The notes under the pieces were generated by a model. That model saw only the letters and a program-made list of their open reading frames with translations, was not told the DNA's origin and searched no databases. A stretch of DNA of 31,433 bases from positions 1-31,433 of the IMG/VR virus record IMGVR_UViG_3300010234_000045. One strand, given 5' to 3'. Source of the stretch: a virus. Taxonomy: Duplodnaviria > Caudoviricetes. This document shows positions 1,935 through 30,261 of this stretch, piece after piece. Numbering within the stretch: position 1 is the first letter of the stretch; every line of letters begins with the position of its first letter. Made by a program: the position numbers and the translations under genes.

Positions 1935-2849
1935 ATGGCTATATCAAGAGGACAACTAGTTAAAGAACTAGAGCCAGGATTGAATGCACTATTCGGCCTG
2001 GAATACAAAAGGTATGAAAATCAGCACGTAGAGATTTTCGACGGCGGTATTGAAACTTCTGACAGAGCTTTCGAAGAGGAAGTAATGTTATCAGGTTTCG
2101 CAAATGCACAAGTAAAACCGGAAGGTTCAGGTGTGACATTTGACAACGCTCAAGAAACATTTACTGCTAGATATACGCACGAGACTGTTGCTTTAGCGTT
2201 CGCAATCACTGAAGAAGCGATTGAGGACAATTTGTATGATAGATTAGCGTCTAGATATACAAAAGCTTTAGCAAGATCTATGGCGAATACCAAACAAGTA
2301 AAAGCAGCAGCTGTATTAAACAATGCGTTTAGTACTAGTTATGCTGGTGGAGATGGAAAACCCCTTTTAGCGGCAGACCATCCTACTATTGCTGGAACTT
2401 TCAGCAATACATTAGCAACTCAAGCGGACTTAAACGAAACTTCATTAGAACAATCATTGATTGATATCAGTGCATTTACTGATGAAAGAGGTTTAAAAGT
2501 TGCGGCTAGAGGAGTCAAAATGATCATTCCAAGTGAATTACAATTTACTGCGGAAAGATTAATGAAGTCTTCTCAAAGAGTTGGCACTGCAGACAATGAT
2601 ATCAACGCAATTGCGTCTATGGGAATGGTTCCACAAGGTTACTCTGTGAACAATTTCTTAACAGACCCTGATGCGTATTTTATCAAAACTGATGTACCAA
2701 ATGGTATGAAGATGTTTGTAAGAGCAGCAATCAAAACAGCTATGGAAGGTGACTTCGATACTGGGAATGTTAGATACAAAGCGAGAGAGAGATACTCTTT
2801 CGGTTGGTCTGACCCTAGAGGAATGTTCGGTTCTTCCGGCGCAGCTTAA
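1935..2849 (+). CDS. Major capsid protein (HK97 fold, Mu gpT-like)
   Basis: The N-terminus MAISRGQLVKELEPGLNALFGLEY and C-terminus GDFDTGNVRYKARERYSFGWSDPRG are characteristic of this MCP family. Strong AGGAG SD; followed by a terminator. Confidence 0.9.
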   Translation: MAISRGQLVKELEPGLNALFGLEYKRYENQHVEIFDGGIETSDRAFEEEVMLSGFANAQVKPEGSGVTFDNAQETFTARYTHETVALAFAITEEAIEDNLYDRLASRYTKALARSMANTKQVKAAAVLNNAFSTSYAGGDGKPLLAADHPTIAGTFSNTLATQADLNETSLEQSLIDISAFTDERGLKVAARGVKMIIPSELQFTAERLMKSSQRVGTADNDINAIASMGMVPQGYSVNNFLTDPDAYFIKTDVPNGMKMFVRAAIKTAMEGDFDTGNVRYKARERYSFGWSDPRGMFGSSGAA

Positions 2850-2875: not shown

Positions 2876-2908
2876 AGAGAGGCCCCTTTACTGGGGCCTT
2901 TCTTTTTG
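2876..2908 (+). terminator. Rho-independent terminator after the MCP
   Basis: Stem AGAGAGGCCCC / GGGGCCTTTCT (one G-U pair), 6-nt loop, then a T run. Confidence 0.85.
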
Positions 2909-2924
2909 ATAGAAAGGACGAACC

Positions 2925-3161
2925 ATGATCAAACAATTTTTAGTTAAAATAAGTGCATACGGATATAAAGCAGAAACCACTATAGAAGCATTAGATACAG
3001 CGGATAGCGTTGAAAATGCTATCCTTGACAAAATAGGAAAAAAAGATATAAAGTTCACTCCTAATGGTAGTTCTAAAAAGAATTGTCATTTAACCTACGA
3101 GGAGATTGTACATGGAACACAATCAGATCAAGGATCTTTACCAAACCAAAAGATCGCTTGA
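2925..3161 (+). CDS. Small hypothetical protein
   Basis: 78 aa ORF with an AAGGA SD; its 3' end overlaps the next gene. Confidence 0.7.
   Translation: MIKQFLVKISAYGYKAETTIEALDTADSVENAILDKIGKKDIKFTPNGSSKKNCHLTYEEIVHGTQSDQGSLPNQKIA
3025..3054 (+). promoter_or_regulatory. Candidate intragenic sigma70-type promoter
   Basis: Perfect TTGACA (3025-3030), with TATAAA at 16-nt spacing or TAAAGT at 18-nt spacing. Confidence 0.45.
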
Positions 3162-3333
3162 ACTAAAGTGGGAGCAAGACCATATTAAAGAAGGTAGATA
3201 TACCTTGAATATGGTTAGGATTGATGAAGAGATTAAAAAAGTTATCAGTCAAATTAAAGACACTGAAACTAAAGAAATCTTACATCAAGTTAAAATAGAG
3301 TCCGTTGCTCCTGAGTTTTCTATAGCTGGCTAG
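3112..3333 (+). CDS. Small hypothetical coiled-coil protein
   Basis: The ATG at 3112 is preceded by GAGGAG (3099-3104) and is preferred over the TTG at 3106. Confidence 0.7.
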   Translation: MEHNQIKDLYQTKRSLELKWEQDHIKEGRYTLNMVRIDEEIKKVISQIKDTETKEILHQVKIESVAPEFSIAG

Positions 3334-3382
3334 TTAGTCAAGCTATTATCGCTGGAAAAAGCGTTTTTCCCATAAGGACATC

Positions 3383-3411
3383 TTGCACTTTATTCAAAAA
3401 TTCTATATAGT
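3383..3411 (+). promoter_or_regulatory. Sigma70-type promoter
   Basis: TTGCAC-17nt-TATAGT in an intergenic gap; predicted +1 near 3418. Confidence 0.7.
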
Positions 3412-3417
3412 TTGCTT

Positions 3418-3492
3418 ACTATACATAAAAAAAACTTTTACATAGACGCGGTATAGTCGACGGCCTAGAGACTATGTAAAAATAACTAGGAG
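3418..3492 (+). ncRNA. Candidate structured cis-regulatory leader RNA (double pseudoknot)
   Basis: 10-bp stem 3436-3445/3472-3481. Loop segment GTATAGT (3451-3457) is complementary to ACTATAC (3418-3424), and loop segment CCTAG (3464-3468) is complementary to CTAGG (3486-3490), which overlaps the SD AGGAG. Confidence 0.6.
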
Positions 3493-3501
3493 AATAATAC
3501 T

Positions 3502-4038
3502 ATGGCAAATACAACTTTTTCAGGACCGGTCATTTCTAAAAATGGCTTTATAACTACAGGCCCTGGAATAACAAAAGCAATTAATTCTACAGGCTTAGGT
3601 GCTCAAGGATTAAATTTAACAGTTAATGCTCACGCTGGAAGAATTTTACTTTCACAGGATGCAGATGGTATTTATACTTTACCGAGTATTAATACTAATG
3701 CTAATGGAGCAACGGCAGGTGAAACTGACTACAATAACCTAAATAACATTGGTGCTACATTTATGTTTTACATAGATACACTAGCAACTGATGTTCAAAT
3801 TCAAACAGATGGTGTGGATAAATTCACAGGCGCAGCTATGATTGCAGTGGATGATGGAGCTAAAAAAGCTTTCTTTCCTGCAGCAGCAAATGATGTTCTT
3901 TCTATGAATGGAACAACAACTGGTGGAATTGTAGGTTCAGTAATTACAGTTACTGCTTTAGAAGCAGCTCAATACTTGGTACACAATACTTTGATCTTAG
4001 GATCAGGAAGTATTGTTACACCATTTAGCGATTCGTAA
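3502..4038 (+). CDS. Putative minor virion/head-associated protein (MANTTFSGPV N-terminus)
   Basis: 178 aa, Gly/Thr/Ala-rich, AGGAG SD, inside the structural module. Confidence 0.6.
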   Translation: MANTTFSGPVISKNGFITTGPGITKAINSTGLGAQGLNLTVNAHAGRILLSQDADGIYTLPSINTNANGATAGETDYNNLNNIGATFMFYIDTLATDVQIQTDGVDKFTGAAMIAVDDGAKKAFFPAAANDVLSMNGTTTGGIVGSVITVTALEAAQYLVHNTLILGSGSIVTPFSDS

Positions 4039-4048
4039 TAACTAATTA

Positions 4049-4070
4049 GTGTGGGGCTTCGGCCCCACAT
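4049..4070 (+). other. Stable GC-rich hairpin with cUUCGg tetraloop (no U-tract)
   Basis: GTGTGGGGC-TTCG-GCCCCACAT followed by AAAAATTTT and then the SD of the next gene. Confidence 0.8.
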
Positions 4071-9002: not shown

Positions 9003-9602
9003 ATGGCTAATTATGAGGCTACGAAGTACGATTTCTCTGGTAGTAATCTATCAGGTATTCAAGGAGTTAACACAGGAATTATAGTTCCCTGGTCCAACGC
9101 TAGTGTTCCTAGTGGTTTCTTAGAATGCGCAGGTGCAGCAGTAAGTAGAACTACCTATGCAGCTTTATTTGCAGTTATTGCAGACACGTATGGTGCAGGA
9201 GACGGCTCTACTACTTTTAATTTACCCGATTTAACAGACAGAATAATTGTTTCAAAAAGTCCAAGTTTTGCGTTAGCTTCTACTGGAGGAGCCGATGCTG
9301 TTACAGCGACAGGGAACGTATCTGGAGGAGCTGATCCTACTGCGTTAAGTACCCCTACCATAGCTGCACACACTCATCCACAAGGAGCACGTACTGGAGG
9401 AGGAGCAGGACCTCGTTCATCTATGGGTCTTCCTGATGAAGGTGTCCCTACTTATCCAAATTGGAGCCCTAATGGAACTTTTACTACAATGGCCGCTGGA
9501 GGAGACGGTGCTCATACGCATCCGTTAGCAGCAACTTTTACAGGTGGATCAGACAGTGTGCTACAACCTTATTTAACTGTAATGTATATAATTAAAACAT
9601 AA
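9003..9602 (+). CDS. Tail collar domain protein / short tail fibre, paralogue 1
   Basis: GIIVPW...PSGFLECAGAAVSRTTYAALFAVI...YGAGDGSTTFNLPDL collar motif; HxH motifs; QPYLTVMYIIKT end. Confidence 0.9.
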   Translation: MANYEATKYDFSGSNLSGIQGVNTGIIVPWSNASVPSGFLECAGAAVSRTTYAALFAVIADTYGAGDGSTTFNLPDLTDRIIVSKSPSFALASTGGADAVTATGNVSGGADPTALSTPTIAAHTHPQGARTGGGAGPRSSMGLPDEGVPTYPNWSPNGTFTTMAAGGDGAHTHPLAATFTGGSDSVLQPYLTVMYIIKT

Positions 9603-10186
9603 TGGCAAATTACGAAGCAACTAGATATGATTTTGACGGTCAGTTTTTAACTGATGTAGAAGGAGTTAACACAGGTATTATTGTACCTTGGAGTGACTCT
9701 ACTCTTCCCAGTGGTTTTTTAGCTTGTAATGGAGCTGCGGTTAGTAGAACTACGTATGCTGCTTTGTTTTCTGTAGTTGGAACTAATTATGGTGCAGGAG
9801 ATGGATCTACTACTTTTAACGTACCTGATTTAACTGATAGGACTTGTTTAGGAAAATCTCCTGGTAAAGCTCAATTTTCTACAGGTGGAGCAAACACAGT
9901 AACTACTACAGGAAATGTTAGTGGCTCTTCAGGTAATACCACTCTTAGCACCGCTCAACTGCCTTCTCATACCCACCCTTCTGGAGGAAATAGAGGAAGC
10001 CCTGCAGGAACAACTGAAACTAATTCTCCAAGTGGGACTGGAAACACAGGAAGTAATTCAGGTGGAAACACAGGAAACGCAGGATCAGATGGAAGTCACT
10101 CTCATTCTTTTTCAGGGAATTTTACAGGTGGAGCAGATAGTGTACTTCAACCTTATTTAACTTTAACGTATATTATAAAAACATAA
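9602..10186 (+). CDS. Tail collar domain protein, paralogue 2
   Basis: Same collar motif; LPSHTH and HSHS motifs; TAATG coupling. Confidence 0.9.
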   Translation: MANYEATRYDFDGQFLTDVEGVNTGIIVPWSDSTLPSGFLACNGAAVSRTTYAALFSVVGTNYGAGDGSTTFNVPDLTDRTCLGKSPGKAQFSTGGANTVTTTGNVSGSSGNTTLSTAQLPSHTHPSGGNRGSPAGTTETNSPSGTGNTGSNSGGNTGNAGSDGSHSHSFSGNFTGGADSVLQPYLTLTYIIKT

Positions 10187-10740
10187 TGGCAAATTACGAA
10201 GCGACTAGATATGATTTTGATGCAGCAAACCTAACTGGTATTCAAGGGGTTAACACAGGTATAGTAATACCTTGGAGTGACAGTTCTATTCCTAGCGGTT
10301 TTTTAGAGTGTGATGGAACTGCGGTCAGTAGAACTACGTATGCAGATTTATTTTCTGTGGTGGGTACTACTTATGGAGTGGGAGACAATTCTACTACTTT
10401 TAACGTACCTAATTTACAAGGTAAATGTTGTCAAAATAATTCACCCTCTAAAGCATTAGCTAGTTCTGGCGGAGCTGCAACGGTAGCAGCCACAGGAAAT
10501 GTTTCAGGGGATTTAGCCTCTCATACTCTATCTGAGTCAGAAATTGCCTCTCATGCGCATCCAGCGACTGGTTTTGGAAATTCTAGTGGAGCCCCTGGAA
10601 GTGGTGGAAGTTTATCCGCTGGAGGAAGTATTGGTGGAGGCGGAGGACATGTTCATGCTGTAGCAGGGGCTGGTTTAACGGGAGACGCTAAATCGGTATT
10701 GCAAAAGTATATAACTTTAGTATATATTATAAAAACTTAA
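10186..10740 (+). CDS. Tail collar domain protein, paralogue 3
   Basis: Same collar motif; HAH and HVH motifs; TAATG coupling. Confidence 0.9.
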   Translation: MANYEATRYDFDAANLTGIQGVNTGIVIPWSDSSIPSGFLECDGTAVSRTTYADLFSVVGTTYGVGDNSTTFNVPNLQGKCCQNNSPSKALASSGGAATVAATGNVSGDLASHTLSESEIASHAHPATGFGNSSGAPGSGGSLSAGGSIGGGGGHVHAVAGAGLTGDAKSVLQKYITLVYIIKT

Positions 10741-11174: not shown

Positions 11175-11183
11175 TTTTTGCAA

Positions 11184-11792
11184 ATGAAAGTTATAGATAC
11201 AGTCAAAAGATTTGATTCTTTAATACCTTCTGGTTGGTGTAATTTAGTCACTGATTTTATAGACAATAGAAATATCACCAATTTATCTATTGCTGCGGGA
11301 GAAAAAAAAGAAATCAGAAATGTAAAAGGTATTTCTTTTATTCCTAAAATTTATTCGTTACGTAATTGTTCTAAAAAAAATTTAATTAAATTAATCCCTA
11401 TGTGTATGTTTTCTTTACAAATAAGAAAACTACTAGAAGTACCTTTATTAAATTATAGTATGATGTTTCCTGGGTGTAACGTAAGTAAGATATTGCAAAT
11501 AGATTTTTTAAAATATCAAGAAGGTGGGAAATATGAAAGACATTCAGACAGGGGTAATGAATCTTCAGGGAGCATGGATAGATATATGTCCGTGATTATA
11601 AATTTAAATTCAAATTATGAAGGTGGAGAATTTATTTTTTTCAATCCTACAACGAGAAAAGAAGATGTAATAAGAGAAGAAAAATTAAAAGAGGGTTCTG
11701 TTTTAATGTTTCCTTCTAATTTTCTTTTTCCACATTCTGTGAAACCTATAACAAAAGGAACAAGGTATAGTTTGGTATGTTGGCTGGCATAA
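11184..11792 (+). CDS. 2OG-Fe(II) oxygenase (prolyl-hydroxylase-like)
   Basis: YERHSD...YEGGEF...FPSNFLFPHSVKPITKGTRYSLVCW. The ATG at 11184 is preferred to the TTG at 11178. Confidence 0.9.
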   Translation: MKVIDTVKRFDSLIPSGWCNLVTDFIDNRNITNLSIAAGEKKEIRNVKGISFIPKIYSLRNCSKKNLIKLIPMCMFSLQIRKLLEVPLLNYSMMFPGCNVSKILQIDFLKYQEGGKYERHSDRGNESSGSMDRYMSVIINLNSNYEGGEFIFFNPTTRKEDVIREEKLKEGSVLMFPSNFLFPHSVKPITKGTRYSLVCWLA

Positions 11793-12307
11793 GAGAACAA
11801 AAATATATTTATATAAATAATTTTTTTTCAAAAGAAGAGTTAAGTATTTTACAACCTTATTGTATAGATAGAACTGCAAAGGCTACTATTAAAGATTTAG
11901 ACGAACAAAGTTTGAATGCTCCTAGTTATTATAAAGATCCTATCATGGATATCATGTTAATAAACAAAATGAAAAAAGCAGAAGAGGTGTCTAAGTTATC
12001 TCTATACTCTACTTATGCTTATTGGAGAGGATATACGTACGGTTCTATTTTAGAGGACCATACAGATAGAGAATCTTGTGAGATTAGTATAACTGCCAAT
12101 ATAGATAGTTGTGGTATTTCATGGCCTTTACATATGGAACATAAGGATATAGAAGTTAAAACAGGAGATGCCGTAATGTATTTAGGATGTGATGTTTTGC
12201 ATGGAAGAAAGAATTATTTTAAAGGTGATTACATGGCTCAAGTTTTCTTTCATTATGTAGATCAAAATGGTCCTTATCGAAGTTTTAAAAACGATGAAAA
12301 AAAATAA
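11777..12307 (+). CDS. 2OG-Fe(II) oxygenase
   Basis: LEDHTDRESCEIS...GDAVMYLGCDVLHGR...QVFFHY. Confidence 0.85.
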   Translation: MLAGIREQKYIYINNFFSKEELSILQPYCIDRTAKATIKDLDEQSLNAPSYYKDPIMDIMLINKMKKAEEVSKLSLYSTYAYWRGYTYGSILEDHTDRESCEISITANIDSCGISWPLHMEHKDIEVKTGDAVMYLGCDVLHGRKNYFKGDYMAQVFFHYVDQNGPYRSFKNDEKK

Positions 12308-12905
12308 AAAACAAGTATATAGTATTAAAGATTTCATAGGTGTTTTTGATAATTTTATTGATGATCAAATATGCGATCAATTAATAAAAGGTTTCTTACA
12401 AGAAGAAAAATTTAAAAAAACATATGGAAGAGCACACGAAATTCAAGGGGCTCCCACACAAAAAAAAGATACCTCTTGCAACGTAGACAATCAAAATTTT
12501 GATATTACTTTTAAAAAGGTCAATCCTTTGTTTAAAATAGCCATGGAAAATGTCTTGAGTTTGTATTTGAAAGAAACGGGAATAGGAGAATTTTTACCAA
12601 AAGACATTAATTGGTGTCCATTTAAAATACAAAGAACTGAGCCCTCTGGAGGATACCATGTATGGCATGTAGAACGTGGTAACAAAGTAGATGATATGGA
12701 TCGCCTTTTGGTGTTTACAGTTTATTTAAATGATATTAAAGAAGGTGGAGAAACAGAATTTTTATATCAAAAACAAAGAGTATCTCCTAAAAAAGGAACT
12801 GCTTGTATATTCCCTGCGCATTTCCCATATGTCCATAGAGGAAACCCTCCTTTAAAAGGAACTAAATATATTGCCACTGGTTGGTTTGTTTCTAACTTTT
12901 ATTAG
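12294..12905 (+). CDS. 2OG-Fe(II) oxygenase
   Basis: GGYHVWHVE...VYLNDIKEGGETEF...HRGNPPLKGTKYIATGW. Start is uncertain (12267 or 12294). Confidence 0.9.
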   Translation: MKKNKKQVYSIKDFIGVFDNFIDDQICDQLIKGFLQEEKFKKTYGRAHEIQGAPTQKKDTSCNVDNQNFDITFKKVNPLFKIAMENVLSLYLKETGIGEFLPKDINWCPFKIQRTEPSGGYHVWHVERGNKVDDMDRLLVFTVYLNDIKEGGETEFLYQKQRVSPKKGTACIFPAHFPYVHRGNPPLKGTKYIATGWFVSNFY

Positions 12906-29676: not shown

Positions 29677-30261
29677 ATGACAGAAGTGTTGGTACATAAA
29701 CATTTAATTGTTCGTGCCGAAGCAGTTAGTCCTCCTATGGATGAAACTTTTTTAAAAGAATGGTTGCAAGACTTCATTAAATGTATTAACATGAAGGTCT
29801 TGATGGGTCCTTATGTGATCTACCATAACGTTCCAGGTAATAGAGGTATTACCGGCGCAGCTATTATAGAAACATCACACATCGTGATGCATGTCTGGGA
29901 TGAACCTTCTCCAGCTTTAATGCAATTTGACGTATACTCTTGTGGGGTATTTGATCCAGAAGAAATATGCAACAAAATTAAAAAAGATTTTGACATCGTT
30001 AAGATTGAATATAAATATTTAGATAGGGAGGCAGAACTAAGAGATATTGCCGGAGGTAAAAGTATTACCAAACCACATCTGAAAGATTTTATAGCTAAGG
30101 AAAACGAAGATAAATTAAAAAAATTGACAGAAGAAACTCTTTTTAAAAGCAGAAAAGAGGTAGATATTAACGGGAATGGGACTACCGGTTATGTTATTAA
30201 AGAAGGGCCCCAAAAAGGGAAAGTTTTAAAACACATACAAATACCCACTAAAAATATTTAA
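29677..30261 (+). CDS. speD: S-adenosylmethionine decarboxylase proenzyme-like, with C-terminal extension
   Basis: HLIV...GITGAAIIETSHIVMHVWDE...QFDVYSCG matches the pyruvoyl AdoMetDC signature (SH.x.H.W; D.(Y/F).CG). Confidence 0.85.
   Translation: MTEVLVHKHLIVRAEAVSPPMDETFLKEWLQDFIKCINMKVLMGPYVIYHNVPGNRGITGAAIIETSHIVMHVWDEPSPALMQFDVYSCGVFDPEEICNKIKKDFDIVKIEYKYLDREAELRDIAGGKSITKPHLKDFIAKENEDKLKKLTEETLFKSRKEVDINGNGTTGYVIKEGPQKGKVLKHIQIPTKNI

Follow-up and report, generated by a model that had tools for sequence, protein, structure and literature searches.

A three-armed, doubly knotted RNA at the ribosome-binding site of a predicted capsid-spike gene in pelagiphages

Mu-gpT-DE (Rfam RF03012) is an orphan RNA motif of 53 positions that reportedly originates from Weinberg et al. 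2017. [quoted passage not shown] This 5′ leader pseudoknot is proposed to be bound by the product of its own gene (PMC10690425), and the same work lists six of its candidates as matching RF03012. In our literature search, the name Mu-gpT-DE was found in one work only, within a list, and no description was found of the knotted or permuted forms presented below; the knotted form may be among the unnamed IMG/VR candidates in files of PMC10690425 that lay outside the search. Compact pseudoknots that pair with or adjoin the Shine-Dalgarno (SD) sequence are also found in the preQ1 and SAM-II/SAM-V riboswitches.

We analysed a 31,433-base virus record, hereafter the window, whose source is a HTVC023P/HTVC027P-type pelagiphage. 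Phages of the HTVC023P type are highly prevalent in the ocean (PMC12753301), and little is known about how such phages balance the supply of virion proteins. Upstream of a predicted capsid-spike gene, the window carries a conserved RNA element of 75 bases, three-armed and doubly knotted, which overlaps the ribosome-binding site and is likely an off-switch for translation of this gene. The element is an elaborate relative of Mu-gpT-DE and not a member by score or helix layout. Three G-A-C strands surround one junction both in the window and in the RF03012 consensus line. The window element also lies downstream of a Mu gpT-like head gene (a criterion we read from the name; two small ORFs lie between), and it likewise ends at the SD and start codon of the next gene, with a helix meeting the SD. 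The helices themselves differ. The short outer helix of Mu-gpT-DE holds the SD in its 3′ strand, whereas the window P2, of 10 bp, stops 6 nt short of the SD; its inner hairpin has 5 bp without flank pairing, whereas the inner arm of the window has 2 bp with a pseudoknot. The knotted form as a whole has a P4 of 2-3 bp plus two added pseudoknots, and the Rfam structure line shows two helices and no third C-G arm. Like autogenous phage translational operators, the element is a structured leader at the ribosome-binding site of the downstream gene, but it differs from that of T4 gene 32 in having a three-way junction with two pseudoknots and in preceding the gene of a predicted capsid-surface protein.

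Locus and architecture of the element

The capsid protein of the window is 82.5% identical to that of HTVC027P and 77.7% identical to that of HTVC023P, both Pelagibacter phages, and its matches to PF25209 and PF10124 both exceed the cut-off (20.1 for PF10124). Downstream of the capsid gene, a terminator-like hairpin is followed by two small ORFs, a promoter, the RNA element, the gene of a 178-aa protein and the tail genes (Table 1). Both promoter motifs and the spacer named in the preliminary description are present in the sequence; the site was absent from the output of a consensus promoter scan of the window. Among relatives, a -10 box lies 3-12 nt upstream of P1 in 259 of 296 cases, exactly 7 nt in 189, and TTG is found at -35 in 188 of the leaders. 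By the usual spacing from the -10 box, the transcript is predicted to start at A3418.

The core of the element is a three-way junction made of three G-A-C strands (G3445-A-C, G3459-A-C and G3470-A-C in the window), in which each helix opens with a C-G pair and one unpaired A stands between helices. The loops of two junction arms pair outward, one with the 5′ end (P1) and the other with the 3′ flank (P3). On re-checking the sequence, we found the previously given coordinates of P1, P2 (10 bp, enclosing a 26-nt segment), P3 and the SD to be correct throughout. The enclosed segment had been taken for a GC-rich loop; it is present but is actually a three-way junction, of which P4 and the lone P5 pair had been missed. 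Nearest-neighbour energy penalises the window junction (-3.3 compared with -6.9 kcal/mol for P2 alone), so the support for P4 and P5 comes from covariation.

Table 1 Features of the window around the RNA element
Feature	Position	Strand	Evidence
Major capsid protein gene, Mu gpT-like	1935..2849	+	phrog_371, E 1.7e-22; PF25209, 48.8 bits; PF10124 Mu-like_gpT, 29.3 bits
Terminator-like hairpin and T run, 3′ of capsid gene	2876..2913	+	Consensus scan
Predicted sigma70 promoter: -35 TTGCAC (3383-3388), 17-nt spacer, -10 TATAGT (3406-3411)	3383..3411	+	Sequence and relatives
P1 5′ strand, begins at predicted +1 (A3418)	3418..3424	+	Complement in own loop; promoter-anchored register; blind set
Linker, A-rich in the window, variable among relatives	3425..3435	+	
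P2 5′ strand; G3445 is the G of the first G-A-C	3436..3445	+	8/8 pairs with changes on both sides
Junction A1, unpaired	3446	+	A,A,A in 300/302 leaders (class selected for at least two junction As)
P4 arm: C3447-G3459 and G3448-C3458 close a loop holding the P1 3′ strand (3451-3457)	3447..3459	+	Covariation
Junction A2, unpaired	3460	+	As for A1
P5 arm: lone C3461-G3470 closes an 8-nt loop holding the P3 5′ strand (3464-3468)	3461..3470	+	C-G in 298/302, U-A in 4/302
Junction A3, unpaired	3471	+	As for A1
P2 3′ strand	3472..3481	+	Covariation in MAFFT alignment
P3 3′ strand, covers AGG of the SD	3486..3490	+	Partner-swap test, relatives, blind set
Shine-Dalgarno AGGAG	3488..3492	+	Sequence, relatives
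Predicted trimeric capsid spike/decoration protein, 178 aa, with conserved N-terminal arm and variable beta-sandwich knob	3502..4038	+	AlphaFold2, fold match, three-copy model
UUCG hairpin directly after spike stop, without U run	4050..4069	+	Sequence

The folding energy of the window was not above chance when compared with shuffles (MFE z = -0.37). An Rfam search of the window returned no match at gathering and chance-level matches only at E up to 10, with the window below the RF03012 threshold (49 bits). Polynucleobacter-1 (RF01718) was ruled out as a relative: it was matched neither by the window nor by the tested relatives, and the rows of its published alignment bear no relation to the element. 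Since neither the single-sequence fold nor Rfam gave a signal, the reality of the element rests on its relatives. A covariance model of the knotted form found no second copy in the window at E < 0.1.

Small size, a double pseudoknot and adjoining head genes would suit a self-cleaving ribozyme or a trans-acting packaging RNA, but we consider this highly improbable. Self-cleaving ribozymes (twister, pistol, HDV-like) gave neither an Rfam match nor a catalytic core in the window or the tested relatives, the element begins at its own predicted promoter, and the core tolerates permutation of its arms. Moreover, the consensus scan found no terminator between the RNA and the 178-aa gene.

Several further features of the window were noted. 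Two small hairpins (3322-3345 and 3354-3371) lie between the stop codon of ORF 3106-3333 and the -35 box and could serve the upstream message as a 3′ element or form a site close to the promoter; by eye, the hairpin arms read ATAGCT..AGCTAT in the window and GTAGCT..AGCTAC in relatives. The capsid gene is also preceded, within gene 1333-1920, by an 11/12 match to the sigma70 consensus (1391-1419), which may be due to chance or mark an internal promoter. Farther downstream are three tandem tail-collar genes (9003-10740), three 2OG-Fe(II) oxygenase-like genes (11178-12905) and an S-adenosylmethionine decarboxylase gene (29677-30261; phrog_3125).

Covariation and gene linkage among relatives

Leaders were collected by four routes. 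The 178-aa protein gave 80 loci, of which 77 were read and three were omitted because their match started within the gene. Searching with one 14-mer from the RNA, which alone occurs in an estimated 3100 IMG/VR stretches, gave at least 120 loci. The remaining routes used the capsid protein and a gene-start pattern that is blind to the RNA. The pooled set comprised 405 distinct leaders. Among 66 capsid-selected loci, taken from 80 for sufficient downstream DNA, the covariance model of the knotted form matched 60; it matched one site in the window.

The nested helices were assessed in a MAFFT alignment of 56 diverse leaders that was not fitted to the structure. For P2, P4 and the lone P5 pair together, 97.5% of cells were paired with 245 double changes, compared with 22-39% in slid controls. 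The middle pair of P4 was UA in 24 of these leaders, GC in 12, AU in 10 and CG in 9, and the lone P5 pair was invariant (see Table 1 for the wider 302 leaders). The pseudoknots were assessed by swapping partners. For P1, 298 of 302 leaders (23 of 26 loop types) contain, in the 5′ flank, the exact complement of their own 5-nt loop core, compared with 1.5% in other types. For P3, at least five Watson-Crick pairs formed in 286 of 302 leaders (55 of 64 types), compared with 3.9% with swapped partners.

The junction ranking behind the 302 double-pseudoknot leaders included a pseudoknot term, and two blind checks were therefore added. When the 5′ strand of P1 was anchored on the promoter, the exact register was recovered in 208 of 252 leaders, covering 12 sequence types. 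A search with the core pattern alone gave 109 distinct loci, of which 9 were truncated and 100 were scored; of the latter, 93 had P1, 94 had P3 and 90 had both. Four of these loci resemble chance matches; beside the P2 closing pair, a mismatch is found in about a quarter. At 2114 P2 positions we counted 109 G-U and 6 A-C combinations, an excess that points to an RNA of the plus strand. The covariation analysis of homologues thus bore out all three helices of the preliminary description: P1, P2 and P3 covary in hundreds of phage relatives, and a real cis element with two pseudoknots sits where the transcript of a virion gene is predicted to begin.

Selection by gene start gave 224 leaders, of which 11 were too short and 213 usable. 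Three perfect GAC anchors were found in 171 of the 213 and in 1 of 1065 shuffles. A script classed the usable leaders as double pseudoknot (114), pseudoknot-free (44), one pseudoknot (13 and 7), permuted (11) or none (24); by eye, 21 of the last group bear the motif with one deviation.

Two divergent loci were also observed. In phage 023Pt_psg01 (L210:3930-4031), every helix is retained, the GAC strands have drifted (AAC, GAT, TAA) and the protein arm has GN instead of GP. In Synechococcus phage MinM2 (L204:1530-1631), no GAC junction was found upstream of the orthologous gene; by eye, this leader holds an unrelated GC-rich hairpin whose loop could pair beside the SD.

The element is found with one type of gene. 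The 14-mer leads into an SD-led ORF in 116 of 120 matches, of the MxxTTFxGP type in all among the matches listed, and the same gene type follows the element in 39 of 39 permuted loci and 90 of 100 core-pattern loci. Phages with the element infect SAR11, Roseobacter and freshwater gammaproteobacteria. In a search of 151 genomes from the family to which a Pelagibacteraceae genome belongs, which are incomplete and for which 26-35 candidates were scored per genome, no element was found before host or non-phage genes. It was found in one of these genomes, there again before a gene with the N-terminal arm. The same search gave one sub-threshold RF03012 match, at 25 bits.

These data bear on a small-molecule or ion riboswitch, in which the junction cavity would bind a host metabolite and close the SD. 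The near-invariant unpaired As and the compact double pseudoknot at the SD are consistent with such a sensor, but we consider it improbable. Only three unpaired bases are invariant, and no riboswitch family was matched in Rfam. Since the element stays with one structural gene and was not found before a host gene in the 151 genomes, the linkage argues against a metabolite sensor. The phage S-adenosylmethionine decarboxylase gene has no shown link to the element. The preliminary description had treated the A-rich linker as a hallmark; among relatives, however, both its length and its composition vary, and the resemblance to preQ1 and SAM-II is superficial. Compared with preQ1 and SAM-II/SAM-V, the window element has no Rfam match, lacks their pocket bases, has another topology and precedes a non-metabolic gene. 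The earlier suggestion of a riboswitch or ribozyme-like RNA was not supported, as none of our observations indicated self-cleavage or a ligand of metabolic origin.

A competing 5′ hairpin in GC-rich freshwater leaders (L327, L332, L346, L384 and L439) would also suit a riboswitch. It was present in 18 of 21 leaders of the CCGGG type, a count weakened by the self-complementarity of CCGG, in 3 of 3 of the CCGAG type and in 3 of 8 of the CUGGG type. As a general switch, this hairpin was ruled out for the window subtype, where its frequency (15 of 184) did not exceed the 11.8% control, and it was kept only for leaders of the CCGGG and CCGAG types.

Mu-gpT-DE, the permuted form and the ribosome-binding site

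The pseudoknot-free leaders are Mu-gpT-DE, upstream of the same MxxTTFxGP gene. The preliminary description matched the element to no named family; this holds for the window, which has no Rfam match, but the same junction before the same gene is Mu-gpT-DE, and 3 of 20 relatives match RF03012 (L077-L079, 68-70 bits). RF03012 misses the knotted form in the window, and the knotted-form model misses the Mu-type leaders. Both forms occur within the cluster of proteins that share the knob of the window (80 double-pseudoknot and 11 Mu-type leaders). The knotted form is present in the cultured phages HTVC027P, HTVC023P and DSL-LC04, and the Mu-gpT-DE form, by eye, in CRP-902.

Each form meets the SD in its own way. 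In the Mu-gpT-DE type, the outer helix ends in the AGG of the SD, 7-8 nt upstream of the AUG in 40 of 44 leaders. In the permuted form, all 39 distinct loci have the third GAC at most 3 nt from the AUG; the third arm carries the SD in its loop in 33 and partly in its stem in the remainder. Here the outer helix (P2) is reduced to a lone G-C pair in 34 of 39 loci; the lone pair moves from P5 to P2. Because the lone pair shifts between arms while the junction persists, we infer that the arms are interchangeable, as expected of a symmetric partner that reads the junction. In permuted leaders (L566-L685, e.g. L566 and L568), a 5′ CCC/CUC could pair with the SD loop.

In the double-pseudoknot form, the extent of SD coverage depends on the subtype. 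In the CCUAG type, to which the window belongs, 189 of 194 leaders have three SD bases covered by P3; in other types it is mostly 0-1, so that the SD sequestration proposed in the preliminary description applies to this subtype and does not extend to the class. An overlap of at least 2 bases was found in 205 of 286 leaders (29 of 55 loop types), and in many non-window subtypes P3 adjoins the SD without covering it. Across the four main double-pseudoknot subtypes, the median distance from the P3 end to the AUG is 11-13 nt (range 4-17). This end position falls within the usual 30S footprint. Given this convergence of three architectures, the element likely controls the initiation of translation.

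A helix that in many subtypes ends right at the SD without covering it would also suit an enhancer or entrapment site to which a host factor binds (the 30S platform, S1 or another ribosomal protein), and the rpsO pseudoknot-S15 operator is a precedent (PMC3985624). We regard this as quite improbable, given that no ribosomal leader was matched in Rfam and that the hosts are diverse while the element is confined to a single phage gene.

The downstream gene and candidate roles of the junction

The AlphaFold2 model of the 178-aa protein, at a confident pLDDT of 89.6, shows an N-terminal arm and a beta-sandwich. PDB sequence, PHROGs and Pfam searches with this protein gave nothing significant. The best fold match was the capsid-spike knob of phage Pa223 (Foldseek E 3e-4; Z 9.7, rmsd 2.4, 99 aligned), effectively tied with phage baseplate and tailspike domains (Z 9.0-9.3); because of this tie, we place the protein on the capsid from the position of its gene. 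The orthologue in DSL-LC04 is annotated as a cement protein. The Pa223 spike gp52 (PDB 9NY6) has the same knob fold and is a trimer with an N-terminal attachment arm, both of which are predicted here, but identity is 13% and the window protein lacks the triple beta-helix stalk. In Pa223, the N-terminal domain anchors the trimeric spike at the three-fold axes of the capsid (bioRxiv 2025.06.11.659172).

The product is predicted to be a homotrimer. A three-copy model scored 0.94, compared with 0.00 for the best control, with pLDDT of at least 90 and agreement between runs in at least 95% of contacts. Of the solved pairs, 20 of 30 passed the mark, as did 1 of 23 solved single chains; these counts apply only roughly to three copies and to an alignment of our own making, and the pass here may stem from likeness to solved trimeric knobs. 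In this model, the three chains meet through residues 1-24. Only the N-terminal arm is common to the family; the knobs of 249 proteins divide into 26 unrelated clusters. In the set selected for an MxxTTFxGP-type start motif, position 11 of the arm is K or R in 64%, and residues 2-16 contain no K or R in 61 of 405.

Expression data are available for the orthologue gp62 during HTVC027P infection. It is a late gene, with TPM 3.0-4.0 times that of gp63, 11-15 times that of gp64 and 2.4-3.7 times that of gp60 at the last three time points (PMC12753301). According to Table S3 of that work, in which we read the time order as 9, 12 and 15 h, gp62 rises before the capsid gene (ratio 1.23, 0.67 and 0.38). 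This profile is compatible with a separate, stable message. Upstream of the promoter, the short gene gp61 reaches a TPM similar to that of gp62 (PMC12753301), so the expression step at the promoter is not clean. A stable hairpin lies within 50 nt of the spike stop codon in 73 of 106 relatives, and the UUCG hairpin of the window is likely the 3′ boundary of the message. Metatranscriptome contigs from four runs of four studies cover the motif and gene of a HTVC027P-like locus, which attests presence only: such contigs cannot give start, strand or level, their depths sum many phages, and two of them extend upstream of the motif.

A protector and attenuator of the message might account for the element. 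Here, the knot would need no ligand; it would shield the 5′ end from nucleases and set a fixed rate of spike translation, with the G-A-C strands as folding architecture. In the double-pseudoknot form, the predicted transcript enters the first helix at +1 or +2; in 28 of 44 Mu-gpT-DE-like leaders, this helix begins 7-8 nt past a -10 box. Both the hairpin after the stop codon and the excess of gp62 over gp63 and gp64 are in keeping with a protected message. However, any 5′ hairpin would protect the end, and the gp61 levels blur the promoter step. Such a structure also leaves unexplained why three G-A-C strands survive the rewiring of the arms at the frequency given above and why every form meets the SD. 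We consider it unlikely.

We give almost even chances to a translational operator that is locked shut by a trimeric phage protein. The symmetric junction, the interchangeable arms and the gene for a predicted trimer together suggest a trimeric protein ligand and feedback on spike supply. The junction would be marginally stable, with one arm a lone C-G pair, and the 30S subunit would open P3 and translate. As unassembled trimer accumulated, it would bind the pseudo-three-fold junction and fix P3 over or against the SD, and further synthesis would stop. Spike supply would then be matched to free capsid sites. P1 might in addition hide the 5′ end and stabilise the message. Within this operator reading, the binder would be the spike's own N-terminal face with roughly two thirds of the weight, and another conserved head trimer with the remaining third.

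In favour of a trimer-bound operator, three architectures retain the same junction and each places a helix on or beside the SD, the element is tied to one structural gene and is single-copy in the window, and the product models as a homotrimer, as would fit the three-fold anchoring of the Pa223 spike by its N-terminal domain. Autogenous operators of phage structural or ssDNA-binding genes provide a precedent (T4 gp32, PMC10690425). On the other hand, the N-terminal arm is at most weakly basic, a weak argument against autogenous binding, and the unrelated knob clusters leave only about 16 residues as a possible common RNA-binding surface. The RNA and the gene may simply happen to be neighbours, an overlap of at least 2 bases between P3 and the SD occurs in just over half of the loop types, and the role of the three As and the three C-G pairs could be architectural alone. 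The degenerate core in 023Pt_psg01 and the missing element in MinM2 also speak against an operator. A more specific version, which we find rather unlikely, is that the pseudo-symmetric three-fold junction mimics the three-fold docking site of the capsid and that the free spike trimer reads it through its three N-terminal arms. This would constitute an assembly-coupled feedback switch common to the most abundant ocean and freshwater phages, and would also explain the orphan Mu-gpT-DE.

With these relatives, an orphan Rfam motif widens to a family in which one symmetric junction is built into at least three architectures, with a candidate binder. Its function is directly testable, as the element is present in cultured phages, and a symmetric, doubly knotted junction of 75 nt is a tractable structural target. 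In one locus (L365), two MxxTTFxGP-arm genes stand in tandem, and the RNA is found before the first only.
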